A stretch of 41,347 nucleotides of DNA from Bacteroidota bacterium (lineage in GTDB: Bacteria > Bacteroidota > Bacteroidia > UKL13-3), in the NCBI GenBank assembly GCA_040385895.1, contig JAZKGM010000184.1, positions 1 to 41,347 of the forward strand, read 5' to 3'. The notes below the pieces were generated by a model. It worked only from the letters and a program-made list of their open reading frames with translations, was not told the DNA's origin and ran no database searches. Position numbers and translations under genes: made by a program. Positions 196 to 29,450 of this stretch are shown piece after piece; position 1 is the first letter of the stretch, and every line of letters begins with the position of its first letter.

Positions 196-275
196 GCCCG
201 GATGGCGGAATTGGTAGACGCACTAGTCTCAAACACTAGCGAGAAATCGTGCCGGTTCGACTCCGGCTCCGGGTA
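196..275 (+). tRNA. tRNA-Leu (anticodon CAA), type II with a long variable arm; CCA not encoded
   Basis: The cloverleaf folds by hand. Acceptor gcccgga (196-202) pairs with tccgggt (268-274). Anticodon stem is ctagt/actag with loop ctCAAac (anticodon at 230-232). T-arm is gccgg-ttcgact-ccggc, variable arm is 11 nt, discriminator is A275. Confidence 0.92.
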
Positions 276-9049: not shown

Positions 9050-9207
9050 TTTAATGAAACAGGCAGGCTACCCCGGGCAGTTATTGCCTGCGCGGTAATC
9101 CTTTCGCCTGCCGTTTGGTGTGCTCTTCCAAAAGAATGCACCCGGTGTGTTGTGTTTTGCGCAATACACCTCTTTTTCCAACTAAACCAATTACTAAAAT
9201 AACAATA

Positions 9208-10299: not shown

Positions 10300-10321
10300 T
10301 CAACCCTAAAAACAAAATAAC

Positions 10322-13300: not shown

Positions 13301-13531
13301 GCTGGTGCTATCGGTAACCGCACCATCGGTGGTTCGGCTTTGGGAGGGATGTTGTTCGGAACTGTTTTCGGTGTGATCATCATCCCCGGGCTCTATTTCA
13401 TTTTCGCCAAGCTTGCCGATGGCCGTCACCTGATCAAACATGAAGACGAAGATTCGCTGACCGAAAACCTGGTTCACCAGATGGATAGTTTCTCTCAAAC
13501 CAACAATGAAAGTGAAGATCAAGAACATTAA
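10322..13531 (+). CDS. RND efflux transporter permease (AcrB/HAE1 family)
   Basis: 1069 aa with 12-TM AcrB architecture. The N-terminus MFSKFIRRPVFAIVISVVIIFVG..L.I.QFPDIAPT, LVLAIGIVVDDAIVVVE (TM4 DD motif) and LIMLVGLLGKNAVLIVEFA are all family hallmarks. Confidence 0.95.
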   Translation: MFSKFIRRPVFAIVISVVIIFVGVLAIKKLPISQFPDIAPTTVNIFIAYPGSSADVLVKSTLITLEQAINGVQDMRYIATDATSAGEATLRIIFEPGTDPNDAVIRVKTRVDQVMPLLPELVQREGVIITPIQPSMLMYVNLYSKDKSIDEKFLFNYATVKMIPEIQRTKGVARAQILGSRRYAMRVWLNPERMRAYKISVEEVMKAIGEQSIIGRPGRIGQSSGIAAQSLEYVLTYKGRYNKPEEYEAIIIRANPEGESIHLRDIARVELGSEFFDIYSNLDGHPSAAIVLKQNYGSNASDVIAEVKAKLDVMKESFPPGVDYKISYDVSQFLDASIEQVLHTLRDAFILVAIVVFIFLGDWRSTLIPILAVPVSLIGAFFVIQFFGLSINLVTLFALVLAIGIVVDDAIVVVEAVHAKMEEKPNISPYNAVREVLGEISGAIIAITMVMVSVFVPISFMSGPVGTFYRQFSITMASSIVISALIALTLTPVLCAMLLKNHHGHPKKKNILTRSLDGFNRGFEKLTGKYVWLLKLIVHRRVVTFGVLLLFCAGIYYESQVVPSGFIPNEDQGTIYAIIQTPPGSTLEKTNQVSQRLQKVCEEVEGVESVSSLAGYEIMTEGRGSNAGTCLINLKNWSDRHHTVKEIMEELEEKSRGLGAVVEFFEPPAIPGFGTSGGFSMRLLDKTGSDDYHGFDVINKEFMDNLGKRKELTGLFTFFAANYPQYELEIDNNLAMQKGVSIGKAMDNLNILIGSTYEQGFIKYNQFFKVYVQSDPKFRRLPSDLLNLFVKNDRGEMVPYSAFMRLKKGQGPNEITRFNLYNSAAIQGLPAKGYTTADAIQAIREVSAKTLPRGYDIAFEGLSYDESIRGNEALYVFIIVLLFVYFVLAAQYESFIIPLAVVLSLPVGVFGSFLMLKLMGLENNIYAQVGLIMLVGLLGKNAVLIVEFAIQKRHQGATILDAAIEGAKVRFRPILMTSFAFVAGLIPLIIATGAGAIGNRTIGGSALGGMLFGTVFGVIIIPGLYFIFAKLADGRHLIKHEDEDSLTENLVHQMDSFSQTNNESEDQEH

Positions 13532-14960
13532 AAACAGGCTGAGCAGTGCCGCGATCGGTGCTGCCCTGATACTGGCTACGGGATGTAGTTTACCATCAAC
13601 AATAAAGCTCAGGCAGGAAAATAAAACGGTTCCTTCGGGGTATAGCGGTGCATCGAAGGATACAGTAAACTCGGGGATGATCCAGTGGAAAAATTTCTTC
13701 ACCGATCCATACCTTCATGCATTGATCGATACTGCGCTTCAAAACAACCAGGAGTACAATATCATGATGCAGGAGATCAATATTGCGCAAAGTGAAGCGA
13801 AGGCAAGAAAAGGAGAATACCTGCCATTTCTGAATATTGGTGGGAGTGCCGGGGTTGAAAAAGCCGGAACGTATACAAGGAATGGTGCCGTTGAAAGAAA
13901 CCTCGAGCTCAATCCCGGAAAAGAAAATCCGGAGCCGCTTCCCGATTTTATGATAGGTGCCAATGCCTCGTGGGAGCTTGATATCTGGAAGAAGCTGCGC
14001 AATACTAAAAAATCGGCAGTGCTTAAATACCTGGCTACCGTTGAAGGCAGAAATTTTATGAGAACCAACCTCGTTGCCGAAATTGCCAGCTCTTATTATG
14101 AGTTGATGGCATTCGATAACCAGCTCGATATTCTGAAGCAGAATATTGAGATCCAGCAAAACGCGCTTGAGATTGTGAAAATGCAGAAGGAAGCGGCCAA
14201 AACCACAGAGCTGGCAGTGCGCAAGTTTGAAGCAGAGGTGCTCAAAAACCAGGCCCACCAGTACTACATTATGCAACAGATCACGGAAGCAGAAAACAAG
14301 ATCAATTTTCTTGTGGGAAGATTTCCGCAACCTGTACCACGCAACTCACAGGCTTTTGTCAATTTGCTTCCCGATTCCATTCATGGCGGCATTCCCTCCC
14401 AGCTGTTGAGCAACCGTCCTGATATCAAACAGGCAGAACTGGAGCTTGCTGCAGCCAAACTGGATGTAAAAGCAGCCAGGGCCAATTTTTATCCGTCTCT
14501 AAGGATCACGGCAGGTATAGGTTACCAGGCTTTTAATCCGCAGTTTATCCTCAAGTCGCCCGAGTCGATGATCTATTCGGCAGCAGGAGAACTGGTGGCT
14601 CCATTGATCAACCGGAATGCGATCAAAGCTTACTATTATTCAGCTTCATCAAAACAACTCCAGAACGTGTACAACTACGAACGCACCATTTTAAGGGCGC
14701 ATATTGAAGTAGCCAACCAGCTTTCCAACATCTCCAACCTGGAGAAAAGTTACGCCTTTAAAGAAAAGCAGGTGCAGGCGCTAAATGAATCGATCAATAT
14801 TTCAACAAGGCTGTTCAAGTCGGCCCGCGCTGATTATATGGAAGTGTTGCTCACACAACGTGATGCACTGGAATCGCGGTTTGAACTGATCGAAACCAAA
14901 ATGCAACAGCTGAACGCACGGGTGAATATGTACCAGGCGTTAGGCGGGGGCTGGAACTAA
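13506..14960 (+). CDS. Outer-membrane efflux factor (TolC/NodT family lipoprotein)
   Basis: Lipobox LATGC|S, NRPDIKQAELELAAAKLDVKAARANFYPSL and C-terminal YQALGGGW are classic OMF motifs. It overlaps the pump gene by 26 nt. Confidence 0.92.
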   Translation: MKVKIKNIKNRLSSAAIGAALILATGCSLPSTIKLRQENKTVPSGYSGASKDTVNSGMIQWKNFFTDPYLHALIDTALQNNQEYNIMMQEINIAQSEAKARKGEYLPFLNIGGSAGVEKAGTYTRNGAVERNLELNPGKENPEPLPDFMIGANASWELDIWKKLRNTKKSAVLKYLATVEGRNFMRTNLVAEIASSYYELMAFDNQLDILKQNIEIQQNALEIVKMQKEAAKTTELAVRKFEAEVLKNQAHQYYIMQQITEAENKINFLVGRFPQPVPRNSQAFVNLLPDSIHGGIPSQLLSNRPDIKQAELELAAAKLDVKAARANFYPSLRITAGIGYQAFNPQFILKSPESMIYSAAGELVAPLINRNAIKAYYYSASSKQLQNVYNYERTILRAHIEVANQLSNISNLEKSYAFKEKQVQALNESINISTRLFKSARADYMEVLLTQRDALESRFELIETKMQQLNARVNMYQALGGGWN

Positions 14961-15018: not shown

Positions 15019-15209
15019 TGTCTTTGAACCATCGGCTTAAACAGATGTTAAGCTATTCTTTTATCCTAGTTGGCGTGCCTGTTCATTGTATCACCGGGCC
15101 ACTTATTAACCGACCGCTGCCAGTTAATTCAAAATCCTTCCCACTTATAAAGTGAGCTGTATACGTGAATGCATGATGTGTGATCTTCGGTTGCCTAATT
15201 CTACACATT

Positions 15210-18200
15210 ATGAAAAGCAAATTTACTTTAATGCTCTTTTATGCCATCAGCTTGTTGCTGGTGAGCATGGAAGCAAAAAGCCAGATCGCCAGAAAAGTTT
15301 ATGGCGGCCCGGCCAATGAAACCAATGCGCATGTACAGCCCTCCCTGGGAGGGTTCCATTACATCATTTCAAAAACGGGTACAGGAACCCCACAAACCAT
15401 TCATATAAGCAGGTATGATGCAGCAGGAAATATGATCTGGCGGAAAAACTACACCGGTGTTTTAGGGAATACAGATGAGGTGGTATCTACCCTGGAAGAC
15501 CGCTCGGGAGCGCTGGTATTGCTTGTTAATGATGTTACCCCGCCTCCGCCTCCACCAGGCCTGAGCATCCTCCAGTATTTCAAAATTGTTAAAATAAATG
15601 CTGCCGGGGGACTGATCTCGTTCTGGTCGTATGCACCCGGCCTGATCGCGATCCCTCTTCAGCACACACGTGGTGTAAAGATCATGCAAAGCTTTACCGA
15701 TGATAATTATTATGTGATCGGCAACAGGATCCCGGCCGGAGCAAACCAGTTAGATGTGGGCGTGATCTTCAGAATAGATAATCTTGTGGGCTCCGTGCTG
15801 CATCAAAACCAGTTTCAATATAATTTTAACGGTACAAAACGCGATATCGGGTTCTATGACCTGGCGCAGATCAATGCAACCAACTGGGTAATCAGCGGGG
15901 CTTATTTGCCATTGCCAGCTAATACCCGGTATAATAACCTTGCCCTGGTATATAACTTCTCAGGAACCGGTTCGATCGTTGCCGTGAAACAGATCGAGTT
16001 CGACCAGAATAACCACGAAGCCTTTGACCGGGTGGTAGTAGACCAAAACCGGGGCAGGATCTATTTCGGGTATCATTTACATACAACGAACATACAGCAC
16101 AATATAGGCGTGGTATGTACCGATTACCTGCTTAATGTGACCTGGCGCACACGTATTACGCCTGTAACGGGAGAAGCCGAACGAATGAGCAGCATGATCT
16201 ACGATGCAGTTTCTGACCAGATCCTCACATCGGGATTTAGCGTAAGCACAGACCATGGCTTTATCACCAGCTTTTCTCCCACCGGCATCCGCAACTGGAC
16301 CAAAATTCCATCGGGTCTTGCGCTTAACGCTGCCCAGGCTCCGTTCCGCATCGCCTTATCAGCCAACAATACGATCTTATACAGCAGTGATATTCAAAAT
16401 GGCGGAAACAGGGACCTTACCTGGGGATCTACCGGCATATCCGGTGAACCGGGCGCATGTTTTAATCCTAAAGCGTATAATGCTGCCGTTCTTCCTTTTG
16501 TGCAATCACAGGACCCGATCGATCTGTCAGATCCTATGTTTTATCGCGATAACACGGAGTGTGCTGTTGCAGACATGCCTATGCCGGAGCAGGGAGTTTG
16601 TGCAAATTGTGTATTACCTGGCGATGTGATCAAATATGGCTATGCGGTGCTGCTTGGAAGTAATTTCTGGGGTACACAAACGCAGGGGGCCAAATATTAT
16701 ATTGACGGGGTGCTTACTGTTCCTTCGGGAGCCACGCTCGACATCACCAATGTGGATGTGATCTTCGGAAAAAACGGGGCCATCGTGTTCCAGGACGGAG
16801 CCATCCTCAGGGCCAACAATTCGGTGTTCCGTCCCTGCGATCCGGACCTTACCTGGAAAGGCATCTCTTTCCAGGGCAATGCCAAAGGCGTGGTTAACAA
16901 CTGCATATTTAAAAATGCAGCTTTTGCACTCGATATCGCTAACGGAAGGAACCAGCTTAAGATCACCAATAACCAGTTTTCCAATTGCCTGGTCAGCATC
17001 AGGATCACCAACACCCATACCGAACATGCTTCTGTTACCGGAAATAAGTTCTTTGCCGATTATTCAGACCTTGACTTCGGAATGGTGAACCCGGTATATT
17101 TATTCAGCAATACCTACACCGGGGTTCTGCTCCGTGCAAATACCGAAAGCATCGTGATCTCGCAGAATGAGTTCCTGCTTACCAGGAGTGCAGGCAATGT
17201 GCACATGTTGTATGGCATATATGCCACTCAGTCCAATACCGATATTTCGTCAAATGCATTCACCAGCTGCTACCGGGCGGTCGACCTGTTGCAACCCCTC
17301 GGTTTCAGTGTAGAGAATAACAAGATGGAAGTGACCCGTAAAAAGCATGACCAGGATTACCAGGTAAAAGTAACCTCCTCGGGTGCGTTACTTGCTACCA
17401 TTGCCAATAACCAGATCAGTAATTTTAATATGGCCAATGAGTTTATTTCAACACAGGCCGCTATTTACGCTGATTTTTCAAGTTACCTTAAGATCCATGA
17501 TAATGAGATCAAGGGGTTTGAAACCGGGTTGAAGATCAACCAGCTTACCGGTGCAAAGATCTATTCCAATCACATTACAGGCTGTCATATGTATGGAATT
17601 CATGCAGAAAATTGCATGTCGACCACCATAAAATGCAATGTAATAGACATGAACTACACGAAAGACAATACCCGCAACTGTGCAGGGATCAGGTATTATC
17701 AAACCCTCCCTCATCATAATAACCTGGACATACGTGGCAATTGTATCTTAAATACATATGATGCCATCGTCCTTTTTTCTTCCATGAGTTGGGTTACCAT
17801 ACCGGTAATCCGGAACAATTACCTGTATAACTATATCTATAACGGAATTTATAACGATAATTTCACGGGCTCTATCGGTACGGCCGCAGCAGCGCCCGGT
17901 GCAGGTAAAAATGTATTTATCAGCAATAACTATAACCCGTTTAGCGGTGCGATCGATATCTATTCAACTGTGCTTTTGTATGAAAACGGAAATTACAATA
18001 TCATGTCAACAGGCGGCATGGTTGGCAGCATGGGCGGAAGCAACCATTCTTCGGCTTCGTGCGGCCACTTTTTTGCCGGGAACAATAACAATGCACAGCG
18101 TATAGAACAGGAAGATAAATGCGACAGTGATGCTTCTTCGTCAGGAACACTGATCCCGCGCAGCGCCACTCCACCTTATGCCGGGTTGTTTGTTAAGCCC

Positions 18201-18932
18201 GAAGGAAGTTTGGGCTACCCGGTAGCAGATCATGCAAACACTTACGAGAGGCTGGTACACTGGTCGCAAACCGCACGGTCAATTTCTGCGACACCTTTCG
18301 AGCTGGAAAAGTTTACACAATGGCTGGCAACAAGCGAAACGAACAACGATGTGAAATTATTGGTGCAGGCCTATGTAAATATTCTTGCCGGTAAACATGC
18401 CGATGCAAGCACTGCACTTTTGCAGGTGAATAAGCCGGAGTGGAAGACCACGGTAGAAAGGATGCAGCTTCTGAATACGGTATCGGTAAAAGGATTCGTA
18501 GCTGACGAAACCACCCGGGCAAGGGCATCATTACTGGTGCAGGACAACGACTTTTTTGCTGCTGCATTGGGCATGGTGTTCGAACCATGGCATGATGAGT
18601 TTCACTATACGTTTGCTTCCGACAGGCCATATGAACGGCAAAAAGGGGACTATTCAAGGATCGACCATCCTGTGGTAACCTTTTCGGTATACCCTAACCC
18701 GGTAAAAGACGGCAGTTTTAAAGTAAATATTTCTACTCCAAACAACAGCGAAAGCACTTTATACATAAGGGACCTGTTGGGCAGGACCTTATTTTCAAAG
18801 GAAGTACCGTTCTCGGCAGGGACACTCGAAGTGTCTGTTAATGATCTTCCATTGGGCATTTACATTGCATCGGTAGAAAGCACGGATAATGTGCTGAAGA
18901 CCGAAAAGATTGTTATTTCGGGTCACAAGTAA
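15210..18932 (+). CDS. Large secreted protein: N-terminal beta-rich region, central right-handed parallel beta-helix repeats, T9SS C-terminal sorting domain
   Basis: Signal peptide MKSKFTLMLFYAISLLLVSMEAKSQ. There are at least 10 periodic I/V-x-x-N-x-F/I beta-helix turns (ITNNQFSNC, VTGNKFF, ISQNEF, ISSNAF, VENNKM, IANNQISN, IHDNEIKG, IYSNHITGC, IKCNVIDM, IRGNCILN, IRNNYLYN). The C-terminus VYPNPVKDGSFKVNIS...LPLGIYIASVES...KIVIS is a Por_Secre_tail type CTD. Start at ATG 15210 rather than GTG 15180. Confidence 0.88.
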   Translation: MKSKFTLMLFYAISLLLVSMEAKSQIARKVYGGPANETNAHVQPSLGGFHYIISKTGTGTPQTIHISRYDAAGNMIWRKNYTGVLGNTDEVVSTLEDRSGALVLLVNDVTPPPPPPGLSILQYFKIVKINAAGGLISFWSYAPGLIAIPLQHTRGVKIMQSFTDDNYYVIGNRIPAGANQLDVGVIFRIDNLVGSVLHQNQFQYNFNGTKRDIGFYDLAQINATNWVISGAYLPLPANTRYNNLALVYNFSGTGSIVAVKQIEFDQNNHEAFDRVVVDQNRGRIYFGYHLHTTNIQHNIGVVCTDYLLNVTWRTRITPVTGEAERMSSMIYDAVSDQILTSGFSVSTDHGFITSFSPTGIRNWTKIPSGLALNAAQAPFRIALSANNTILYSSDIQNGGNRDLTWGSTGISGEPGACFNPKAYNAAVLPFVQSQDPIDLSDPMFYRDNTECAVADMPMPEQGVCANCVLPGDVIKYGYAVLLGSNFWGTQTQGAKYYIDGVLTVPSGATLDITNVDVIFGKNGAIVFQDGAILRANNSVFRPCDPDLTWKGISFQGNAKGVVNNCIFKNAAFALDIANGRNQLKITNNQFSNCLVSIRITNTHTEHASVTGNKFFADYSDLDFGMVNPVYLFSNTYTGVLLRANTESIVISQNEFLLTRSAGNVHMLYGIYATQSNTDISSNAFTSCYRAVDLLQPLGFSVENNKMEVTRKKHDQDYQVKVTSSGALLATIANNQISNFNMANEFISTQAAIYADFSSYLKIHDNEIKGFETGLKINQLTGAKIYSNHITGCHMYGIHAENCMSTTIKCNVIDMNYTKDNTRNCAGIRYYQTLPHHNNLDIRGNCILNTYDAIVLFSSMSWVTIPVIRNNYLYNYIYNGIYNDNFTGSIGTAAAAPGAGKNVFISNNYNPFSGAIDIYSTVLLYENGNYNIMSTGGMVGSMGGSNHSSASCGHFFAGNNNNAQRIEQEDKCDSDASSSGTLIPRSATPPYAGLFVKPEGSLGYPVADHANTYERLVHWSQTARSISATPFELEKFTQWLATSETNNDVKLLVQAYVNILAGKHADASTALLQVNKPEWKTTVERMQLLNTVSVKGFVADETTRARASLLVQDNDFFAAALGMVFEPWHDEFHYTFASDRPYERQKGDYSRIDHPVVTFSVYPNPVKDGSFKVNISTPNNSESTLYIRDLLGRTLFSKEVPFSAGTLEVSVNDLPLGIYIASVESTDNVLKTEKIVISGHK

Positions 18933-19302: not shown

Positions 19303-21054
19303 ATGAAAAAAATTCAACTCCGGTTTGCCAGGTTAACAATGGCAATGTGTGCAGGATTTCTGCTTCTGGGCAGTTCTGCATTCGCTTCCAGTCATAGGGA
19401 AGCACCATTAATCTCAAACGATCCGCTGGCGGATAACACCGATCTTTATGCTTTCAGAAGCCCTGATAACACGAATACGGTTACCATCGTGGCCAATTAC
19501 ATTCCTTTTCAATTACCGGAAGGCGGTCCGAACTGGACCTCTTTTGGCGAGAACATCCGTTATGAAGTATACGTAGATAATGATGCGACCAAACCGGGCG
19601 CTGAAATTGTTTACCGCTTCACCTTCACTAAAATGAACATGGACCCGTCTACGTTCTTTAACATCCGTTTAGGCAAAGAAAACCTTAAAACAACCTATAA
19701 ACTGGAACGCAGTATCAATGGCGGGCTTACTTTTGCAACCATTATCGCTGCAGGTGTAGTGCCTCCGCCAAATATCGGTGCACGCTCAATCGAAGGTGCT
19801 GCCGGTTTAAACACCAATTATTCAACCCTGGTTAATAATGCGATCACCACTGCCGGAACAGGCGAAAAAGTATTCTGCGGCCCTGCCGATGATCCTTTCT
19901 TTGTTGACCTTGCAGGCGCATTCGATCTTGGAAACTTCCGCCCTTCAGACAATACAACGAATGCCCCTAAAGATGGGGTTGCCCGTTTTAATGTGCATTC
20001 TATTGTGATCCAGATCCCTATTGCCACTTTACAAAAAGCAGGCAAAGATGTGAGCATGGCTGCCAATATTTTAGATCCTGATTTTGTGATCGGTGTATGG
20101 GCTGCTGCTAGCCGTCCTCAAATGAGAACACTGGATGCCAATGGTGCCGCTTCGAACTATTCAGGCAACTGGGTTCAGGTATCACGTTTGGGCATGCCTT
20201 TAACAAATGAAGCCATTATTCCGATCGGTTCAAAAGACAAATGGAATGCAACAACCCCTGCTGGCGATCTTCAGTTCGCTAAATACTTCACCAATCCTGA
20301 ATTGGCCTTATACATGGATGATTCAAAATTTGGCGGAGCAGTTCCTGCGCTAAATTCATTACGCATCCAGAGCAATTCACTGGGATCGTTTGATTTCAGG
20401 AACGGACAACCCGGCTTGTTCTCTTTAAAAGGAACAGCTGCTTTAGATGGTACAGCCCTGGCTGAATCTGCATTTGGCGGTATCTTATTACCGGATGCCA
20501 CAAGCCCGCGTGCAGTCGATCTGCTTCCGATATTTTATACGGGTGTTCCTAACATGCGTCCTTACCAGTTGGCCACAGGCAAAAACGGTGACCCATTAGC
20601 GGCCGGTAAACCTTTCATTCATAATTTCCTTCCTTCTTTAGGAGATATGTTACGCCTGAACATGGCTGTACCGGTTACCCCGAGGAACGATCCTAAATTC
20701 AGTTCCCTTGGAATTGTTTCTGCTGCCGTATTGGGATTAACAGATACCATGTACAACAAATCAACAGCGCTGCAAATGATCCCCAACATGGATGGTTTCC
20801 CGAACGGAAGACGCCTGGAGGATGACGTAACCACGATTGAGTTACAAGCGGTGAGCGGTGTTGCTTTGGCTGCGATCGGTTTATGGTATAATGATTATTC
20901 TGGTGGAACAGCAAGCCCTGTTACAGACAGGCTAGTTAAAGTGTTAAGCTTTACTGCAGGTCCTACTAAGAACGACATCAATTTTAAAGCAGTATTTCCT
21001 TACGTGCAGGAGCCATGGAGAGGTTCTGACTATTCATTACAAGACAGATTCTAA
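19303..21054 (+). CDS. DUF4331 domain protein, paralog 1 (signal peptide, no T9SS CTD)
   Basis: Signal peptide ending SAFA|SSHREAPLISNDPLADNTDLYAFRSPDN, the hallmark N-terminal motif of DUF4331. Also VFCGPADDPFFVDL, VSRLGMPLTNEA and MDGFPNGRRLEDDV. Confidence 0.9.
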   Translation: MKKIQLRFARLTMAMCAGFLLLGSSAFASSHREAPLISNDPLADNTDLYAFRSPDNTNTVTIVANYIPFQLPEGGPNWTSFGENIRYEVYVDNDATKPGAEIVYRFTFTKMNMDPSTFFNIRLGKENLKTTYKLERSINGGLTFATIIAAGVVPPPNIGARSIEGAAGLNTNYSTLVNNAITTAGTGEKVFCGPADDPFFVDLAGAFDLGNFRPSDNTTNAPKDGVARFNVHSIVIQIPIATLQKAGKDVSMAANILDPDFVIGVWAAASRPQMRTLDANGAASNYSGNWVQVSRLGMPLTNEAIIPIGSKDKWNATTPAGDLQFAKYFTNPELALYMDDSKFGGAVPALNSLRIQSNSLGSFDFRNGQPGLFSLKGTAALDGTALAESAFGGILLPDATSPRAVDLLPIFYTGVPNMRPYQLATGKNGDPLAAGKPFIHNFLPSLGDMLRLNMAVPVTPRNDPKFSSLGIVSAAVLGLTDTMYNKSTALQMIPNMDGFPNGRRLEDDVTTIELQAVSGVALAAIGLWYNDYSGGTASPVTDRLVKVLSFTAGPTKNDINFKAVFPYVQEPWRGSDYSLQDRF

Positions 21055-21090
21055 GATAAGGAAAGTTTAAATCACATAATTTTTAACGAA

Positions 21091-23133
21091 ATGAAAAAAT
21101 TGAATATACTAAGAACGATCATTGCTTCTGCGCTATTGGCAGCAACAGGCAATGTAATGGCATCAAGCCACAGGGAGGCACCCCTGATCTCAAACGATCC
21201 ACTGGCAGATAATACGGATCTGTATGCGTTCCGTAGTCCTGATAATCCGAATACGATTACCATTATCGCTAACTACATTCCTTTCGAATTGCCGCAAGGC
21301 GGGCCTAACTGGTCAACATTCGGAGAGAACATCCGTTACGAGATCAACATCGATAACGATGCATCAAAACCGGGCGCGGAAATTATTTACCGTTTCACTT
21401 TCAGCCGTATTAATGAAGATACAACCACTTTCTTTAACATCCGCCTGGGCAAACAGAATTTAAAAACAACCTACAAGCTGGAGCGCAGCACAAACGGAGG
21501 TATTTCTTTTACAACCATCGTTGCCAAAGGAACAGTTCCGCCAAATAACATTGGCCCGCGTTCTATTGAAGGAGCTGCCGGAATGGGCGCTGCCAACTAC
21601 AAAGCGTTGATGAATGCTTCGATCACTACAGCCACTTCAGGTGAGAAAGTTTTTTGCGGTCCTGCAGACGATCCTTTCTTTGTTGACCTGGGTGGTGCTT
21701 TCGACTTAGGTGGTTTCAGGAAAACCGGTGCAAGAGATGGTGTAGCTAAATTTAACTGCCATACCATTGCGATCCAGGCACCTATCGAAAACCTTCAGAA
21801 AACAGGCTTAACACTGGCCAGTGCTACCAGCATCCTTGATCCTAATTTTGTGATCGGTGTTTGGGCTACAGCAAGCCGTCCACAGATAGAAACCTTAAGC
21901 GATATGGGAGCTACTCCCGGTGTTTCAGGCAACTGGGTTCAGGTATCACGCTTAGGCATGCCTTTAACCAACGAAGCTGTTATCCCGCTTGGCGATAAAG
22001 ACAAATGGAATGCTACTTCACCGGTGAACGACCTTCCGTTTGCTAAATATTTCAGCAACCCTGAGCTGGCTTTATACATGGACGACTCCCAGTTTGGCGG
22101 AGCTGTACCAGGCCTTGCAGACCTGAGGATCCAAACCAACTCGTTGGGTAAATATGATTTCCGTAACGGAAAAGCAGGTTTATGGAGCTTGAAAGGAACT
22201 GCTGCAGTTGCAGGAACAGCATTGGATGATGCCGCTTTTGGTACCATTTTATTGCCTGATTCCATAAGCCCGCGTGCAGTGGATCTGCTTCCCCTGTTCT
22301 ATACAGGTGTGCCAAATCTTGCGCCTTACCAGTTAGCTGTTAATAAAGGTGAAAATCCTTTGGCGGCCGGTAAGCCTTTCATTAATAATTTCCTTCCTTC
22401 ATTGGGTGATATGTTACGCCTGAATATGGCTGTACCTGCAACACCAAGGAACTCTCCTGATTTCAGCCCGCTTGGAATTATCGGGGCGGCAGCTTTAGGT
22501 TTAACAGATGCACGTTTTAACGGAGACATCAGCCTTGATACGATCCCTAACATGGATGGTTTCCCGAACGGAAGACGCCTTGAGGATGACGTAACTACTA
22601 TTGAATTGCAGGCAGTAAGCGGTATCGCGCTGTTCGCTATCGGTTTGTATTACGATGATTATTTCAGCATACTTGGAGTAGGAAATCCGTTAACACAGGA
22701 CTTCAGCGATGTGTATGGTTTCAGGGCTGGTCCTACCCAGAATGATACTGCTTTCCAGGCAAATTTCCCTTACGTTCAACAACCGTGGGCAGGTTTCAGG
22801 GGTGCATCTTATGCAGCTCCGGTATTGCCTCCGGTAACTGGTTTGAAAAATCTTGGCATCGGTTCAAGAGATCAGCTGGTTGCAAACAACTATCCTAATC
22901 CGTTCAGCGGAACCACAACGATTAAATATAATGTAACCACTGATTCGAAAGTAACGGTTGTTGTATTTGATATTAAAGGACAAAAAGTAGCTACGCTTGT
23001 TAACAATGAATTGAACAAAGCAGGTGTGCATACTGTTGACTTTAATGCAGCGGGCCTGCAGGCAGGAACGTACTTTGCACAGATCACTACCAAAGACAGC
23101 CAGGGAACTGTTAAACTTCTCATCTCAAAATAA
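21091..23133 (+). CDS. DUF4331 domain protein, paralog 2, with a T9SS C-terminal sorting domain
   Basis: Colinear with paralog 1 and highly similar to it throughout. It carries an extra ~90-aa tail NYPNPFSGTTTIKYNV...VVVFDIKGQKVATLV...AGTYFAQITT...VKLLISK, which is a T9SS CTD. Confidence 0.9.
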   Translation: MKKLNILRTIIASALLAATGNVMASSHREAPLISNDPLADNTDLYAFRSPDNPNTITIIANYIPFELPQGGPNWSTFGENIRYEINIDNDASKPGAEIIYRFTFSRINEDTTTFFNIRLGKQNLKTTYKLERSTNGGISFTTIVAKGTVPPNNIGPRSIEGAAGMGAANYKALMNASITTATSGEKVFCGPADDPFFVDLGGAFDLGGFRKTGARDGVAKFNCHTIAIQAPIENLQKTGLTLASATSILDPNFVIGVWATASRPQIETLSDMGATPGVSGNWVQVSRLGMPLTNEAVIPLGDKDKWNATSPVNDLPFAKYFSNPELALYMDDSQFGGAVPGLADLRIQTNSLGKYDFRNGKAGLWSLKGTAAVAGTALDDAAFGTILLPDSISPRAVDLLPLFYTGVPNLAPYQLAVNKGENPLAAGKPFINNFLPSLGDMLRLNMAVPATPRNSPDFSPLGIIGAAALGLTDARFNGDISLDTIPNMDGFPNGRRLEDDVTTIELQAVSGIALFAIGLYYDDYFSILGVGNPLTQDFSDVYGFRAGPTQNDTAFQANFPYVQQPWAGFRGASYAAPVLPPVTGLKNLGIGSRDQLVANNYPNPFSGTTTIKYNVTTDSKVTVVVFDIKGQKVATLVNNELNKAGVHTVDFNAAGLQAGTYFAQITTKDSQGTVKLLISK

Positions 23134-23202: not shown

Positions 23203-24507
23203 ATGAAATTTTTATCAAAACTTATTTTTGCAGTATGCCTGTTAACTTGTATTACTGCCTGCGATAACAACGCACAAACAAAAAAAGATACCGGTTCGTT
23301 CATGCCATTGAAGGCACGGAACGGGGAGCTGGCAAAATCGGAAGAGTGGCCCGTTGTGCAGCAAAAAGCACAGGGATTAAATGAAAAGATCGCAAAAGAT
23401 CCTTCCGACCTTAAATCGAAATTATTATTAGCACAATTATATATGCAGGAAGCCCGCATCACAGGCGAGCATCCTTATTACTATCCTGCAACACTTACTA
23501 TTTTAGATGATGTACTAAGCCGCGATGCCAACAATTTTGAGGCATTGGCGTATAAAGCATCTGTTGAGCTTTCATTGCATCATTTTGCCGATGCGCTTGC
23601 AACAGGCTCCAAAGCAAAAAAGATCAATGCCTCCAATGGATTTATTTTTGGCGTGCTGTGTGATGCCAATGTAGAGTTAGGGAACTATGACGAAGCCGTT
23701 AAAATGTCGGAGCAGATGCAGGCATTGCGCCCGGGATTGGAATCATATTCGCGGGCATCTTATTTAAGGGAAATTTACGGGAACAATGCAGCAGCCATTG
23801 AAGCGATGAAAATGGCATACAACGCAGGCCTGCCGGGATCGGAAGAAGCTTCATGGGCAGGCAATACCCTTGCCGGGCTTTACGAAAGCACAGGCGACCT
23901 GAAGAATGCAGAGAACACCTATACACAGATATTGACACAACGGCCTTCGTATGCATTTGCTATGGCAGGCCTGGCGCGTGTTGAAAAAGCAAAAGGAAAC
24001 TATGACAAGGCGCTTGCCATGCTTGATAAAGCCATCGCCATGATGCCCGAGTTCTCTTTTTATGAAGACAAGGCTGATGTATATGCTGCACAGGGACAAC
24101 CTGAAAAAGCAAAACAGATGTATACCGAAGTGATCGGAATGCTGAATGAGGATGCTGCAAGCGGCCATTATGCCGATATGGAGCTGGCCAAGGCATACCT
24201 TCATACAGGCAATATGGATAAGGCATTGGAGCATGCTACAATAGAATATAAAAGAAGACCTGAGAACATTGATGCAAACAGCACCATGGGCTGGGTACTT
24301 TACCAGAAAGGAGAATATGCCAAAGCAAAAGAACACATGCAGAAAGCCGTTCGCATGAATACGCAAAATGCAGAATTATTATGCAAAGCAGGCATTATAG
24401 AAGCAGCTGCCGGTAACAAAGCAAAAGGCACTGAATGGGTGAAAAAAGCAATGAAAATCAACCCCAACATGCCCGAAGACCTTAAAGCCAAAGCAAAAAC
24501 GGTTTAA
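23203..24507 (+). CDS. Tetratricopeptide-repeat (TPR) lipoprotein
   Basis: Lipobox LLTCITAC|DNN. Repeated 34-aa A/Y/L-rich TPR units run throughout (e.g. NFEALAYKASVEL, GNYDEAVKMSEQMQALRP, GNYDKALAMLDKAIAMMP, GEYAKAKEHMQKAVRMN). Confidence 0.85.
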   Translation: MKFLSKLIFAVCLLTCITACDNNAQTKKDTGSFMPLKARNGELAKSEEWPVVQQKAQGLNEKIAKDPSDLKSKLLLAQLYMQEARITGEHPYYYPATLTILDDVLSRDANNFEALAYKASVELSLHHFADALATGSKAKKINASNGFIFGVLCDANVELGNYDEAVKMSEQMQALRPGLESYSRASYLREIYGNNAAAIEAMKMAYNAGLPGSEEASWAGNTLAGLYESTGDLKNAENTYTQILTQRPSYAFAMAGLARVEKAKGNYDKALAMLDKAIAMMPEFSFYEDKADVYAAQGQPEKAKQMYTEVIGMLNEDAASGHYADMELAKAYLHTGNMDKALEHATIEYKRRPENIDANSTMGWVLYQKGEYAKAKEHMQKAVRMNTQNAELLCKAGIIEAAAGNKAKGTEWVKKAMKINPNMPEDLKAKAKTV

Positions 24508-24540
24508 TACATCATTATTTATAAAACCCTGTTACATCAC

Positions 24541-24750
24541 ATGAAAAAAATTATTTTAAACGCATCACTTGTATCTGCAATTGCTCTCGGGTTAACCGCA
24601 TGCAGCAGTTCACCTGAAAAAGCGGATACCAACGAACAAAAGATAGAAGCAGAACATAGTGAAGAGCATGAGCATGCTCATGTTCACGGAGATTCAACAC
24701 ACACGCACGATCACATGCACGAAGGTGATACTTCCATGCACGATCATTAA
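24541..24750 (+). CDS. Small His/Met/acidic-rich lipoprotein (putative metal-binding)
   Basis: Lipobox ALGLTAC|SSS gives a mature peptide of ~49 aa. The last 34 residues contain 11 His (EAEHSEEHEHAHVHGDSTHTHDHMHEGDTSMHDH). Confidence 0.7.
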   Translation: MKKIILNASLVSAIALGLTACSSSPEKADTNEQKIEAEHSEEHEHAHVHGDSTHTHDHMHEGDTSMHDH

Positions 24751-24759
24751 TTGTTTCCG

Positions 24760-24797
24760 GCAGAAGGCTCAATAAAATATTGGGTCTTCTGCTTTTG
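24760..24797 (+). terminator. Hairpin terminator/attenuator between the His-rich gene and the TonB-dependent receptor
   Basis: Stem gcagaag / cttctgc, extendable through an AT-rich inner stem, followed by ttttg. Confidence 0.5.
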
Positions 24798-24849
24798 TAA
24801 AAACCACTTACTGAACGATAACGTATCTGTAAAACAACCTGTACATACG

Positions 24850-27111
24850 ATGAAAAAAAATATACAATTTCTCTTTTTATTGATCACACTTTTAACCGGG
24901 CATGCAGCATTCTCGCAAGGGGCTTCTGTTTCGGGGAAAGTGACCGATGCTTCGCTGCAACCGGTTTATGGTGCGGAGGTTTCCCTTAAAGAAACCAGCA
25001 TTAAAACCTTTACCGATTCGAACGGGGTGTTTGTATTAAACAACATCGGCAATGGAAAATATACGGTAAGCATCACCAGGCGTGGTTATGAACCACAACT
25101 CAAAAACATTGAAATAAAAAATAACAGGCCGGCTAACATTGCTTTCAACCTTAAAGCAGATTACCTCAACCTGAAAGAGGTAGTGATCACCGGGGATAAC
25201 AGCACACAGGCAAATACCATTGTTAACCGCATTGATATGCAGCTACGCCCGGTGAATTCATCGCAGGACCTGCTGCGCCTGGTACCGGGTTTATTTATAG
25301 CCCAGCATGCAGGCGGGGGAAAAGCCGAACAGATCTTTTTAAGGGGATTTGATGTGGACCATGGAACCGACTTTGCCATTTATGTAGACGGAATGCCGGT
25401 GAACATGCCTTCGCATGCCCACGGCCAGGGTTATGCCGACCTGCATTTCCTGATCCCTGAGACCGTGCGCGAACTGGAAGTGAACAAAGGTCCTTATGCC
25501 ACCAAATATGGCGACCTGGCTACATCCGGATCGGGAGAGTTTAAAACGCTGAATGCCTTAAGCAAAAACCAGGTGAAGCTTGAATATGGCATGTTCAACA
25601 CACAACGTATGCTGGGAATGTTTAATGTACTGGATAAAAAACACTTGTTCTCCAGGAAAAAAGAAAACCTGTATGTAGCAGGTGAGTACCGGTATTCGGA
25701 TTCCTATTTTCAAAGCTCGCAGGATTTTAAGCGTGTTAATTTATTTTCTAAATACACAGGCGTGCTTAACAACGGATCGCAGCTTTCCATCACACTCTCC
25801 ACGTTTCAAAGCAACTGGGATGCATCGGGCCAGATCCCGGATCGTAAGGTAAATGATGGCACCATCAGCCGTTTTGGAAGCATAGACAACACAGAAGGCG
25901 GAGAAACAGGCCGCACCAACTTTAATGTAACCTATACCAAGCCTTTAGAGAACGGTTCGTTCAAGAACCAGGTGTATTACAGCCGTTACGATTTTAAACT
26001 CTATTCCAACTTTACTTTCTTTTTAAATGATTCTGTAAATGGCGACCAGATCAAGCAGGAAGACCACCGAAACATTTATGGCTATACCAGTACCTTAAAC
26101 CTGAACAACTACCTGGGTTCAAAAAAACTAAGTTCAACTTTTGGCGCAGGGGTAAGGTATGATAATTCGAACATCAGCCTTGACCACACCGTAAAAAGGG
26201 AATTTTTAAATGAGATCGTAAGGGGAACACTGAACCAGGTGAATGCATGGGTTTATGTAGACGAGAACCTGGAACTAACATCTAAACTGAGGTTAAACCT
26301 TGGCTTAAGAGGAGATATATATAATTTCGATTTCAAGAACCAAACCGTTGATACCGCTTCGGGAAATGTAACCAAAGCTGTATTCAGTCCAAAGCTGAAC
26401 CTTTTTTATACGCTGAATCAATCTGTTCAGTTGTTCGCAAAATCAGGATATGGTTTTCACTCGAACGATGCAAGAGCAGTTGTTGTGGGGAAATTAGAAA
26501 ATACGCTGCCTAAAGCATTGGGCTATGAAGTGGGTTCTACTTTTAAATTGGGAAAACGGGCATTGGTGAACGTGGCTTTATGGGGCCTCGACCTGGAGAG
26601 TGAACTCGTATATGTAGGCGATGAAGGAATTGTGGAAGCAGCCGGAAGGTCGAGAAGGTTGGGTGTTGATTTTGGCGTGCGTTACCAGCTGACGCAGTAT
26701 TTATTTTTAGATGCTGATGTGAACATGAACAACGGACGTTTGCTGGATGAACCGGCAGGTGCGAACCGCATTCCGCTTGCACCAACATTTACCAGCATTG
26801 GTGGCATAAGCTATAAACGCCCGGCAGGGTTCAGCGGAAGCGTTCGCTACCGTTATATAGGCGATAGGGCTGCTACAGAAGATAATTCCATCATTGCACA
26901 TGGTTATTTTTTAGTGGATGCAGTGATCAACTACACAAAAGGAAATTACCAGTTTGGGCTAACAGCTGAAAACCTGTTGAACCGCGAATGGAAAGAGGCG
27001 CAGTTTGCAACAGAAAGCCGCCTGCAAAACGAAACCCAATCGGTTAACGAGATCCATTATACACCAGGCACACCTTTATTTATAAGAGGCAGTGTGAGTT
27101 ATTTTTTCTAG
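24850..27111 (+). CDS. TonB-dependent outer-membrane receptor (CarboxypepD_reg N-domain, plug, 22-strand barrel), non-SusC type
   Basis: Signal peptide MKKNIQFLFLLITLLTGHAAFSQ, then the SGKVTDA...GAEVSL...TDSNGVF.L.NI..GKYTVSI...GY carboxypeptidase-regulatory fold. Plug motifs are LLRLVPGLFIAQHAGGGKAEQIFLRGFD and DGMPVN. The C-terminus ends in an aromatic residue (...SVSYFF). No SusD partner gene follows. Start at ATG 24850 rather than TTG 24751. Confidence 0.9.
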   Translation: MKKNIQFLFLLITLLTGHAAFSQGASVSGKVTDASLQPVYGAEVSLKETSIKTFTDSNGVFVLNNIGNGKYTVSITRRGYEPQLKNIEIKNNRPANIAFNLKADYLNLKEVVITGDNSTQANTIVNRIDMQLRPVNSSQDLLRLVPGLFIAQHAGGGKAEQIFLRGFDVDHGTDFAIYVDGMPVNMPSHAHGQGYADLHFLIPETVRELEVNKGPYATKYGDLATSGSGEFKTLNALSKNQVKLEYGMFNTQRMLGMFNVLDKKHLFSRKKENLYVAGEYRYSDSYFQSSQDFKRVNLFSKYTGVLNNGSQLSITLSTFQSNWDASGQIPDRKVNDGTISRFGSIDNTEGGETGRTNFNVTYTKPLENGSFKNQVYYSRYDFKLYSNFTFFLNDSVNGDQIKQEDHRNIYGYTSTLNLNNYLGSKKLSSTFGAGVRYDNSNISLDHTVKREFLNEIVRGTLNQVNAWVYVDENLELTSKLRLNLGLRGDIYNFDFKNQTVDTASGNVTKAVFSPKLNLFYTLNQSVQLFAKSGYGFHSNDARAVVVGKLENTLPKALGYEVGSTFKLGKRALVNVALWGLDLESELVYVGDEGIVEAAGRSRRLGVDFGVRYQLTQYLFLDADVNMNNGRLLDEPAGANRIPLAPTFTSIGGISYKRPAGFSGSVRYRYIGDRAATEDNSIIAHGYFLVDAVINYTKGNYQFGLTAENLLNREWKEAQFATESRLQNETQSVNEIHYTPGTPLFIRGSVSYFF

Positions 27112-27140: not shown

Positions 27141-27177
27141 AAGAAGCCTTAGTATCTGTGTTAAGGCTTCTTTTTTA
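27141..27177 (+). terminator. Rho-independent terminator after the TonB-dependent receptor
   Basis: 11-bp stem aagaagcctta / taaggcttctt with a 10-nt loop and a tttttt tail. Confidence 0.8.
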
Positions 27178-27314: not shown

Positions 27315-29450
27315 ATGGAAACAATCAATCACATCTGGAGCTTTTCAACAGTAGGCGGAGTTAAACGGGTTAACCTTGAATCCGGTACGGACCTGTTGCA
27401 CCTGGCTTCGTTAGACCAGAAATTATGGACAGCCCTGGGTTGCCCTGTGGAAGGCCTTGAAATAGACCGGGCCACGCTGCGGCTTATTGATAAAGATGGT
27501 GACGGACAGATCCGTGTACCGGAGGTGCTGACCGCAGTAAGCTGGGTGCTTAACATATTGAAAGATCCAGACGACCTGCTTAAACAGGATAACACACTTC
27601 CTCTTTCGGTGATCAGCAACGGAACCGAAGCGGGAAGGCAATTGCTGGCCTCGGCCAAAATTATATTGAGCAACCTGGGCAAACCCGATGCAGATCATTT
27701 AACCATTGAAGATACTTCTGATCTTGAAAAGATCTTTGCTTCCACACGTTTTAACGGGGATGGGATCATCACAGAAGATTCAGCCAATACCCCTCAAAGT
27801 GTTTTGCTTCTTAACGAGGTAATGGCCTGCATGGGCAGCCTTACCGACAGGGGAGGCAAGCAGGGTGTTGACCAGCCGATGCTTGAAAATTTCATACAGG
27901 CCTGTTATGCCTATAAAACATGGTTTGAAAGTGCTGATGATTCTGTCCGTCCCTTCGGTGCAGCTACCGGCCAGGCACACCTCGTTTACCAGAAAGTAAA
28001 AACCAAAATAGACGATTATTTTATCCGCAGCCACATGGCCGGGTACGACCCTGCATCGGCACATGTATTAAATGTACTGGTGGCGCAGGTGGAGGCAATA
28101 AGTCCAAAAGATCTTTCGGGCAGCCTAGAAGAAATTGCCGCCTATCCTTTGTCGAAAATTGAAGCGGGAATGCCTTTAAAATTAATAGAAAGCGTTAATC
28201 CTGCATGGCAAAATGAGCTTGCTTTGTTTAAGCAACAAGTAAGCGATCCCTTGTTTTCCGCTTCAGCCACACTTAGCGAAGCACAATGGAAAACAGTAAA
28301 AGCGCAGTTTGTGGCCTATGAAAAATGGATGGCCGAAAAGCAAGGTGCAGAAGCAGAGCTGCTAGGTATTTTAAGGGTCAATGAAATTATAGCCGGGAAT
28401 ACGGTGCAGGAGCTTTACCAGCTTGTGATGCAAGACAAAGAGCTGGAAGAAGAAGCCAACAATATGATCCTGGTTGACCAGCTGGTTCGCTATTACCGCG
28501 ATCTTTTTAAGCTGCTTAAAAACTTTGTTACCTTCTACGATTTTTATTCGCCCGGGCATAAAGCCATTTTCCAGGCCGGTACTTTGTTTATCGACCAGCG
28601 GAGCTGCGACCTGTGCATCCGTGTAAATGATATTGCCAGGCACGCTGAAATGTCTGCTTTCAGTGGCATGTTCTTAATGTATTGTGAATGCGCATCGCGT
28701 TCAACCAACGAAAAAATAACCATTGCAGTAGCACTCACCAATGGCGATATTGATAACCTGGTTCCGGGCCGCAATGCCATTTTTTACGACCGCAACGGAT
28801 TGGACTGGGATGCCACGGTTGTGAAAATAATTGATAACCCCATCAGCATGAAGCAGGCATTCTGGTCGCCATACCGCAAAGTTTCGCGGTTTATCGAAAC
28901 CCAGATCAATAAAGTGGCAGCAGCCCAGGACAATAAAGTAACTGGCGATGTAACCAAAGGGATTGAAGACACCAGGCTGAAAAATGAACCGGCTCAGGCA
29001 CCGCCACCACCTTTTGATGTAGGAAAATTCGTAGGGATCTTTGCGGCAATTGGTTTGGCATTGGGAGCAATAGGAACAGCAGTGGCATCGGTAATTGCAG
29101 GCTTTATGGGCCTGGCCTGGTGGAAAATGCCTATTGCAGTGCTGGGCATCATGCTGTTGATATCAGGCCCTGCAATGGTAATGGCTTATTTAAAATTAAG
29201 GAAGCGCAACCTTGCACCAATACTCGATGCAAATGGCTGGGCCGTAAATGCGAGTGCCGTTATTAATATCCAGTTCGGAAATACATTAACGCATATTGCC
29301 GAGCTACCTAAAGGGGCTAAGGTGAACCTGAATGATCCGTTCACCAAAAAGAAACGCCCGGTATTGCCAATGATCATCCTGGGCATCGTTGTCATCGCAC
29401 TTGTTCTTTATCTTTTAGACAGGTATGGTTTCATACAGGTCCATTTTTAA
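27315..29450 (+). CDS. Orphan 711-aa protein: N-terminal canonical EF-hand Ca2+-binding loop, large soluble body, three C-terminal TM segments
   Basis: DKDGDGQIRVPE (27489-27524) fits the 12-residue EF-hand loop D-x-D-x-D-G-x-I-x-x-x-E exactly. The C-terminus has hydrophobic stretches FVGIFAAIGLALGAIGTAVASVIAGF, MPIAVLGIMLLISGPAMVMAYL and VLPMIILGIVVIALVLYLL. I recognise no family for the remaining ~450 aa. Confidence 0.8.
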   Translation: METINHIWSFSTVGGVKRVNLESGTDLLHLASLDQKLWTALGCPVEGLEIDRATLRLIDKDGDGQIRVPEVLTAVSWVLNILKDPDDLLKQDNTLPLSVISNGTEAGRQLLASAKIILSNLGKPDADHLTIEDTSDLEKIFASTRFNGDGIITEDSANTPQSVLLLNEVMACMGSLTDRGGKQGVDQPMLENFIQACYAYKTWFESADDSVRPFGAATGQAHLVYQKVKTKIDDYFIRSHMAGYDPASAHVLNVLVAQVEAISPKDLSGSLEEIAAYPLSKIEAGMPLKLIESVNPAWQNELALFKQQVSDPLFSASATLSEAQWKTVKAQFVAYEKWMAEKQGAEAELLGILRVNEIIAGNTVQELYQLVMQDKELEEEANNMILVDQLVRYYRDLFKLLKNFVTFYDFYSPGHKAIFQAGTLFIDQRSCDLCIRVNDIARHAEMSAFSGMFLMYCECASRSTNEKITIAVALTNGDIDNLVPGRNAIFYDRNGLDWDATVVKIIDNPISMKQAFWSPYRKVSRFIETQINKVAAAQDNKVTGDVTKGIEDTRLKNEPAQAPPPPFDVGKFVGIFAAIGLALGAIGTAVASVIAGFMGLAWWKMPIAVLGIMLLISGPAMVMAYLKLRKRNLAPILDANGWAVNASAVINIQFGNTLTHIAELPKGAKVNLNDPFTKKKRPVLPMIILGIVVIALVLYLLDRYGFIQVHF

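Follow-up and report, generated by a model that had tools for sequence, protein, structure and literature searches.

Two adjacent genes of the DUF4331 family in a Bacteroidota bacterium (UKL13-3) raise the question of why two exported proteins with unrelated signal peptides should begin, once those peptides are removed, with the same Ser-Ser-His sequence. The genes are found on the forward strand of contig JAZKGM010000184.1 (assembly GCA_040385895.1), of which a stretch of 41,347 nucleotides, referred to here as the window, was analyzed. The original prediction for this DNA was that both proteins mature to an amino-terminal Cu(II)/Ni(II)-binding (ATCUN) motif, which is defined as NH2-X-X-His (PMC3945884, PMC12509749). 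Our analysis supports that interpretation as a prediction, and a comparison of homologs, which had been suggested as a check on whether His always comes three residues after the predicted cleavage site, came out in its favor. We propose that the shared end is an amino-terminal ATCUN-type metal site that operates in a system for acquiring metal, Ni(II) being more likely than Cu(II), and we put the probability of this reading at roughly 55%. That the DUF4331 family binds a metal of some kind is probable from the His kept at position 3 and from the nickel/cobalt-type transporter genes nearby.

The predicted mature amino terminus of DUF4331 proteins

The two proteins begin with MKKIQLRFARLTMAMCAGFLLLGSSAFA↓SSHREAPL (paralog 1) and MKKLNILRTIIASALLAATGNVMA↓SSHREAPL (paralog 2), where the arrow marks the predicted cleavage site. 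Both match the PF14224 profile over its full length (positions 1-421 of 421) with scores of 432.8 bits for paralog 1 and 419.9 bits for paralog 2, the gathering score for this profile being 27 bits. In both matches, position 1 of the profile falls on the first Ser of SSH. Each protein has an MKK start, a hydrophobic core, and either AFA or VMA directly before SSH, with no lipobox Cys at +1, as expected by rule for Sec export and cleavage by signal peptidase I. The rule, which was applied to the homologs as well, calls for small residues at -1 and -3 in addition to the hydrophobic core. The codons that had been assigned to the two Ser-Ser-His ends, tcc agt cat and tca agc cac, were confirmed at exactly the coordinates given in Table 1.

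Paralogs 1 and 2 are 69% identical overall, and their signal peptides are unrelated. From SSH onward the first 28 residues are identical in the two proteins. The DNA encoding these residues differs at 17 of 84 nucleotides, the differences are distributed over 15 of the 28 codons, and every one of them is synonymous; all three of the SSH codons are among those changed. Differences that are only synonymous, next to signal peptides that are unrelated, point to purifying selection on the mature amino terminus and not to a recent gene conversion. The earlier suggestion of a strong constraint on the mature start is in this way borne out.

The DUF4331 family comprises 4515 clusters at 50% identity (E ≤ 1e-3) from at least five phyla. 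The statistics of the signal peptides were compiled from 213 homologs with an amino-terminal prefix, and those for positions +1 and +2 from 338 sequences. The residue at -1 is Ala in 198 homologs, Gly in 11, and Ser in 4, and the residue at -3 is Ala, Ser, Val, Leu, Thr, Gly, or Ile in 210. The -3/-1 rule is satisfied at the bond preceding X-X-His in 207 of the 213. Ser is found at +1 in 334 of the 338 sequences and at +2 in 336, and sequence conservation begins abruptly at -1. The residue at -2 is often Phe, Met, Tyr, Gln, Glu, or Lys; these residues are disfavored at -3, and thus a cut one residue later would contradict the rule. We infer that the actual cleavage takes place before S-S-H and leaves a free α-amine. 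The predicted maturation of both paralogs to S-S-H, with AxA or VxA directly before SSH, is in keeping with a rule that nearly all of these homologs satisfy, and His is located three residues past the predicted site throughout the 213 prefixed homologs and in the divergent lineages described below.

Among the representatives of clusters at 50% identity, whose identity to the query goes down to about 40%, Ala, Gly, or Ser is followed by SSHREAP almost without exception; the variants are ASH, TSH, SNH, and GGH. Proteobacterial members with 27% identity retain A↓SSHREAP. The REAP portion of the motif has been lost from a cyanobacterial subfamily, where AxA↓SDHQDT is found in 120 of 120 sequences. 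Other divergent ends are GMA↓ADHLDPP in a Croceicoccus member, M-SNHFTG in Methylocystis, M-SHHFDT in M. abscessus, and MSHHYSG in Rhizobium, where the motif occurs at an internal Met of the annotated open reading frame (ORF) that we have taken as the true start. His occupies mature position 3 in all of the sampled lineages, the sole exception being a 276-residue fragment with Tyr, and the residue at position 2 is Ser, Asp, Asn, His, or Gly but never Pro. Alignment A1 shows no variation at S1, S2, or H3. In alignment A2, which spans three phyla, only Ser1, His3, and certain Asp, Phe, Pro, Gly, and Arg residues do not vary, and H204 is the only other His that is nearly invariant. The DUF4331 domain is always positioned at the extreme amino terminus, including in proteins of 700-1500 residues with C-terminal extensions (up to 1512 residues).

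The same end appears to be reached by a second maturation route. In an actinobacterial clade that has no signal peptide, 115 of 119 sequences start with M-SSHREAP. In three of the four loci of this type that were checked, the start codon is closely preceded by in-frame stop codons and a Shine-Dalgarno sequence, and this ATG is coupled to the gene before it. Met before Ser is removed by methionine aminopeptidase, and an M-SSH start would thus yield the identical S-S-H terminus. The processing site and His are separated by a constant distance, including in lineages whose motif is otherwise altered and in the clades that rely on Met removal. Judged by these predicted ends, the amino-terminal X-X-His is a defining feature of the whole DUF4331 family, and the pattern is far beyond chance.

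The proposed metal site and its genomic setting

The predicted His at position 3 and a residue other than Pro at position 2, which are the sequence criteria for an ATCUN site, are found in both paralogs; the second criterion reflects the need to deprotonate the amide nitrogen of residue 2. In the proposed mechanism, signal peptidase I would cut between Ala and Ser to give NH2-Ser-Ser-His, with a free α-amine on Ser1 and His at position 3. The metal would have as its ligands the N-terminal amine, the next two amides of the backbone, and the imidazole of His; in a close variant, side chains such as that of Glu5 would join these. The DUF4331 proteins would then function as the extracytoplasmic components of an uptake system that capture the metal and hand it over.

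The sorting domain at the C-terminal end of paralog 2 (PF18962, E 3e-11; TIGR04183, E 7.6e-12) predicts that this protein is exported by the type IX secretion system (T9SS) to the cell surface and held there by its C-terminus. Because the attachment is at the C-terminal end, the N-terminus of paralog 2 would stay free. Neither a lipobox nor a Por_Secre_tail was found in paralog 1 by inspection of the sequence and a profile search, and this protein is predicted to be periplasmic because it has no C-terminal sorting domain. The two compartments would be connected by the TonB-dependent receptor of the same operon. In most relatives, a permease of the HupE/UreJ or NicO type would move the metal across the inner membrane. 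The DUF4331 copies of Streptomyces have C-terminal tails that resemble membrane anchors, with a sortase gene adjacent, and would follow the same logic of C-terminal anchoring.

The gene neighborhoods were compared in 80 related loci from Bacteroidota and Chlorobiota, many of which run off the ends of their contigs, and in individual loci from Chlorobiaceae, Proteobacteria, Rhizobium, Streptomyces, Nostoc, Miltoncostaea, and actinobacteria. The usual order in the 80 loci is a DUF4331 protein of about 585 residues without a sorting domain, a second of about 690 residues with it, a tetratricopeptide repeat (TPR) protein, a HupE_UreJ_2 protein of about 220 residues, and a TonB-dependent receptor. 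At least two copies of DUF4331 are encoded in 55 of these loci, the TPR protein in 59, HupE_UreJ_2 in 29, and the receptor in 31. In the Chlorobiaceae locus, DUF4331 is followed by a 718-residue protein that is assigned to NicO by Pfam and has His-rich loops. A HupE/UreJ gene is found 3' of DUF4331 in Pseudoalteromonas, Marinobacter, Lichenicola, Comamonadaceae, Croceicoccus, and Rhizobium. The first five of these proteobacterial loci encode DUF4331, at times a small protein, a protein of about 400 residues that is TPR-like or unannotated (TPR was confirmed by Pfam in Pseudoalteromonas and Marinobacter), and HupE/UreJ; in Rhizobium, DUF4331 adjoins a classical HupE/UreJ protein of 191 residues. 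The Streptomyces locus encodes DUF4331, a TPR protein, a homolog of the Chlorobiaceae NicO protein that is annotated as "nickel transporter", and a second DUF4331. In Nostoc, DUF4331 and a TPR gene are followed by another homolog of the NicO protein of Chlorobiaceae, which has a His-rich loop and is annotated as "sulfite exporter TauE/SafE family protein". The TPR gene is found 3' of DUF4331 in Proteobacteria, Streptomyces, Nostoc, and Miltoncostaea. The link between DUF4331 and Ni/Co-type transporters and His-rich proteins is cross-phylum, extending over five phyla.

These transporter families make Ni(II) the most likely metal and Cu(II) the second. The transporters favor Ni(II) and Co(II), the chemistry of the motif favors Cu(II) and Ni(II), and Ni(II) is the overlap. 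Both the nature of the metal and the direction in which it is moved are inferences.

A number of observations weigh against an ATCUN-type site in metal uptake. No HupE/UreJ, HupE_UreJ_2, or NicO gene was detected in the window by tblastn. An Rfam scan of the whole window returned a single tRNA and no NiCo or cobalamin riboswitch, and thus nothing that would name the metal. A k-mer search of 76 orthologous upstream regions yielded only A/T runs and start codons and no site for a regulator. The exchange of Cu(II) and Ni(II) at ATCUN sites is slow, a property that sits poorly with a relay. The actinobacterial M-SSH proteins have no export signal of their own and may be cytoplasmic. In most clades there is almost no variation at S1, S2, and R4-E5-A6-P7, which is more conservation than a minimal ATCUN site needs; either this excess reflects constraints from processing and tuning, or the segment does something further or something else. 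The low confidence of this segment in the structural models described below is of limited help, as a low confidence score at a terminus is weak evidence by itself. Finally, the His/Met-rich lipoprotein of 69 residues encoded between the TPR gene and the receptor is missing from a metagenomic relative (contig L091) that is 94.7% identical. The gene is contained in a segment of about 330 bp (window 24508-24849), in place of which L091 has about 70 bp (L091:5889-5967). No counterpart was found in the 80 related loci by BLAST and a scan for His density, and in many relatives HupE_UreJ_2 is found at this position. The original prediction had relied in part on this neighbor for its metal hypothesis. 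The hypothesis itself gains from the Ni/Co-type transporters of the related loci; the neighbor is poor evidence, and because it is strain-specific and has no counterpart in the 80 loci we have not used it as primary evidence.

The actinobacterial loci of the M-SSH type encode a protein of 83-109 residues with a twin-arginine translocation (Tat) signal directly 5' of DUF4331, and the stop and start codons of the two genes often overlap. This arrangement suggests that the actinobacterial DUF4331 proteins may be exported in the folded state as Tat "hitchhikers". In three of these four loci a His-rich protein of about 135 residues is encoded 3' of DUF4331, and in the fourth (P0320) it is fused to DUF4331.

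The partners of DUF4331 in other loci have features of their own. In every HupE/UreJ, HupE_UreJ_2, and NicO-type partner that was inspected, a signal peptide and a small residue are followed by a predicted mature His1, as in ALQA↓HVISY, ADA↓HPLGNF, and ASA↓HTAGG. In the permeases, His1 would provide another type of amine/imidazole site at an N-terminus, encoded in the operons of DUF4331. A mature His1 is also predicted for about one-third of the TonB-dependent receptors encoded with DUF4331, as in AFA↓HLGSISG; the receptor of the window does not have it. An internal His-rich insert, GDTHDSDHDHDHGHSHASSSGHGHNHE, is present in a TPR partner from Flavobacteriaceae (L021:11300-12715). A sigma factor of the extracytoplasmic function (ECF) group is encoded in 13 and an RskA-like anti-sigma factor in 11 of the 80 loci from Bacteroidota and Chlorobiota, and the pair occurs in Pseudoalteromonas and Croceicoccus as well; neither gene was found in the window. 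In Rhodobacterales (Sulfitobacter and Paracoccus; L084, L092), DUF4331 and a small lipoprotein are encoded beside a type II secretion cluster and not beside HupE.

A more complete picture can be offered only tentatively, and we regard it as less likely than not. DUF4331 would be a large family with a novel fold whose X-X-His end captures Ni(II), possibly Cu(II), outside of the cytoplasm or, in some actinobacteria, possibly on proteins that travel as Tat passengers. The metal would be handed over to permeases or receptors with His1, in a relay made largely of N-terminal amine sites. The Bacteroidota would have a version with two paralogs, in which a T9SS copy on the surface and a periplasmic copy operate across a TonB-dependent receptor.

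The coordinates of these features are collected in Table 1. The ORF of the TonB-dependent receptor as listed begins at 24751, and its likely start is MKKNIQF at 24850. The nearest relatives of this receptor with solved structures, YncD and PqqU, were only weak matches and name no metal. Directly upstream of the operon, a protein of 1250 residues (window 15180-18932) has right-handed beta-helix/NosD-like repeats and a T9SS sorting domain. No homolog of it was found in the 80 related loci, and it is probably unrelated to the operon. Past the terminator, an ORF of 711 residues (window 27315-29450) has an EF-hand-like segment, DKDGDGQIRVPE, and C-terminal transmembrane stretches; it has no match in Pfam and is not conserved beside DUF4331. 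Farther upstream are a complete efflux operon of the resistance-nodulation-division (RND) type (window 9115-14960; membrane-fusion protein, AcrB-family pump, and outer-membrane factor) and a tRNA gene (window 196-275), after which comes part of the N-terminal domain of a phage integrase (window 498-938). The tRNA gene and this fragment may represent the edge of an integrated element.

Table 1. Positions of the DUF4331 operon features in the window and of related features in other loci (positions with an L-number)
Feature	Position	Strand	Remarks
DUF4331 paralog 1, 583 aa	19303..21054	+	PF14224 E 2.3e-129, residues 29-571 = profile 1-421
Signal peptide, paralog 1	19303..19386	+	n-region MKKIQLRFAR, hydrophobic core, c-region SSAFA (A at -3, -1)
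Predicted mature N-terminus Ser-Ser-His, paralog 1	19387..19395	+	codons tcc agt cat
DUF4331 paralog 2, 680 aa	21091..23133	+	PF14224 E 1.9e-125
Signal peptide, paralog 2	21091..21162	+	c-region GNVMA (V at -3, A at -1)
Predicted mature N-terminus Ser-Ser-His, paralog 2	21163..21171	+	codons tca agc cac
T9SS C-terminal sorting domain, paralog 2	22891..23124	+	PF18962 Por_Secre_tail, residues 601-678
TPR lipoprotein, 434 aa, lipobox ITAC	23203..24507	+	several TPR Pfam families; conserved DUF4331 partner
His/Met-rich putative lipoprotein, 69 aa, lipobox LTAC, tail EHSEEHEHAHVHGDSTHTHDHMHEGDTSMHDH	24541..24750	+	strain-specific insertion
TonB-dependent receptor, N-terminal CarboxypepD_reg	24850..27111	+	PF00593, PF07715, PF13715
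Terminator-like hairpin closing the operon	27141..27172	+	14-bp stem, then T run
Permease partners with predicted His1	L002:13167-13835; HupE_UreJ_2 ORFs in L005-L028; L083:10087-11187; L085:9844-10953; L086:8441-9907; L087:3589-5241; L029:11373-13529; L093; L094; L096:5987-6559; L099:7751-8869		
Receptors with predicted His1	L003:13309-15591; L006:13384-15642; L009:13454-15712; L002:13862-16132; L014; L015; L018; L019; L033; L048; L079		
ECF sigma/anti-sigma examples	L018:7085-7669; L030:6879-7736; L083:5582-6798; L099:8915-10265		
Actinobacterial M-SSH loci	L081:7602-9783; L082:7675-9784; L089:4745-6775; L090:4748-6764		

Structural models and alternative roles for the segment

Two structural models were prepared with AlphaFold2, one for mature paralog 1 (mean predicted local distance difference test score, pLDDT, of 82; predicted template modeling score, pTM, of 0.89) and the other for an actinobacterial member (mean pLDDT 89.8, pTM 0.91). 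In both models the N-terminal half is rich in beta-strands and the C-terminal half is helical. Residues 1-11 are the most conserved stretch of the family, and most of them have pLDDT values below 50 in both models and are thus unplaced. A segment that is invariant and unpacked in an apo monomer is suggestive of a tail that may become ordered upon binding of a ligand or a partner. When the two models were compared with the PDB using Foldseek, nothing was found at E ≤ 0.001 and no alignment was of useful quality. A search of the PDB by sequence gave no match for DUF4331 or for the HupE_UreJ_2 partner.

The ligand need not be held as in an ATCUN site. The N-terminal strand could fold back such that the amine, His3, and Glu5 bind the metal together with D12/D16/D19 or H204, in an octahedral or tetrahedral geometry that would accommodate Zn, Co, Fe, Mn, or six-coordinate Ni. 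The invariance of E5, D12, D16, and D19, the near invariance of H204, and the many conserved Asp and Asn residues of the family are consistent with a composite site of this kind. It would also account for a conservation of SSHREAP that exceeds the needs of an ATCUN site, and neither the His-rich partners nor the HupE/NicO transporters are specific for square-planar metals. However, positions 4-7 vary in the cyanobacterial, ADH, SNH, and SHH lineages, where only X-X-His persists, and in neither of the two models is the N-terminal segment docked on the body of the protein. We consider a composite site to be unlikely.

The unplaced segment could instead be a docking or plug motif that has no role in metal binding and is recognized by the TPR protein, the receptor, or the permease. 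Terminal peptides are commonly gripped by TPR domains, the TPR gene is 3' of DUF4331 in most loci across phyla, and a segment that is invariant, extended, and unplaced in models of the monomer is what such a role would produce. SSHREAP is nevertheless kept in the actinobacterial M-SSH loci that have no TPR gene, and the members of about 340 residues from Methylocystis and M. abscessus have no TPR neighbor either. The divergent lineages alter the peptide but keep His as the third residue from the free end, which fits the chemistry of an amine better than the recognition of a peptide. A docking role is, in our estimation, rather improbable.

It is less probable still that the segment is purely structural, for example a folding strand in which His serves for packing and the constant spacing reflects no more than the start of the domain. 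This possibility was raised with the original prediction, and the coincidence of position 1 of the Pfam profile with Ser1 is compatible with it. Against it, no other part of the two models, which are confident elsewhere, is placed with so little confidence, and the remainder of the motif diverges while His3 and the position of the terminus do not. The convergence of two processing routes on one end and the metal transporter genes in the neighborhood argue against it as well.

A function for Ser1 as an N-terminal nucleophile (Ntn), with His3 assisting catalysis as in the Ntn hydrolases, was considered, given that Ser is predicted to come first in 334 of the 338 sequences and that an M-S start is reminiscent of those Ntn enzymes whose activation depends on the loss of Met, and was rejected as highly improbable: Ala, Thr, or Gly replaces the supposedly invariant nucleophile in some members (ASH, ADH, TSH, and GGH), neither model matched the alpha-beta-beta-alpha fold of the Ntn enzymes or any other hydrolase fold in Foldseek, and the genomic context is one of transport and not of catabolism.

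Relation to known systems

ATCUN sites are found in serum albumin (DAH), histatin 5 (DSH), hepcidin (DTH), and the extracellular N-terminus of human Ctr1 (MDH), where the motif serves in metal uptake. The DUF4331 proteins resemble these in His3, in a residue other than Pro at position 2, in an extracellular or extracytoplasmic location, and in a free α-amine, which for DUF4331 is predicted. They differ in that the motif stands at the head of a folded protein of about 550 residues, in that four to five further residues are conserved, and in that binding of a metal to the DUF4331 end is a prediction.

Some TonB-dependent receptors are supplied by capture proteins that are secreted or located on the surface, such as the hemophores HasA and HmuY. 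Like these hemophores, DUF4331 would be a secreted or surface-anchored binding protein that is encoded beside such a receptor, to which the window adds a periplasmic paralog; unlike these, it would hold a bare metal ion at its N-terminus, and there is no homology. Ni sites that use an N-terminal amine are found in the "Ni-hook" of Ni-superoxide dismutase and in HypA, RcnR, and NmtR. There, too, proteolytic or Met processing creates the amine that ligates Ni, but the sets of ligands are different (Cys in the dismutase, His2 in HypA), the location is cytoplasmic, and the sequences are unrelated.

The closest working analogy is provided by NikM/CbiM of the energy-coupling factor (ECF)-type Ni/Co importers, in which the extreme N-terminus is strictly conserved. 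NikM and CbiM bind Ni/Co through a conserved N-terminal loop at a square-planar site of four nitrogens, which its authors compare with ATCUN (PMC3945884). The terminal amine and the backbone and imidazole nitrogens are the ligands, the function is uptake, and the exact N-terminus is required (PMC3945884). NikM differs from DUF4331 in being integral to the membrane and in having a His at position 2 together with a distal His67, and the two are not related in sequence or fold. The HupE/UreJ and NicO (NiCoT/RcnA-like) permeases share operons with DUF4331 in five phyla and have a predicted His1 of their own, but they are membrane transporters that are not homologous to DUF4331, and the window contains none. 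PcoB was considered as a precedent for an ATCUN site that is exposed by cleavage of a signal peptide and was dropped, as the paper says only that its internal His motifs "resemble" ATCUN.

Our searches of the literature returned nothing relevant on DUF4331 (PF14224, IPR025566) or on the motifs SSHREAP and SDHQDT, and those on HupE/UreJ regulons returned no paper on a DUF4331 operon. The type of motif is known. The literature that was searched contains no description of an ATCUN-type end as the defining feature of a large family with a novel fold and a link to Ni/Co transporters.

The X-X-His terminus, the two maturation routes, and the link to HupE/UreJ and NicO together provide DUF4331 with a concrete proposal for its function that can be tested cheaply. 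They point to a missing extracytoplasmic partner of the nickel/cobalt permeases of the HupE/UreJ type and, in the Bacteroidota, to a possible protein-based metal scavenger. If the proposal is true, DUF4331 would represent a rare case of an ATCUN-type site that is a working part of a bacterial uptake system.

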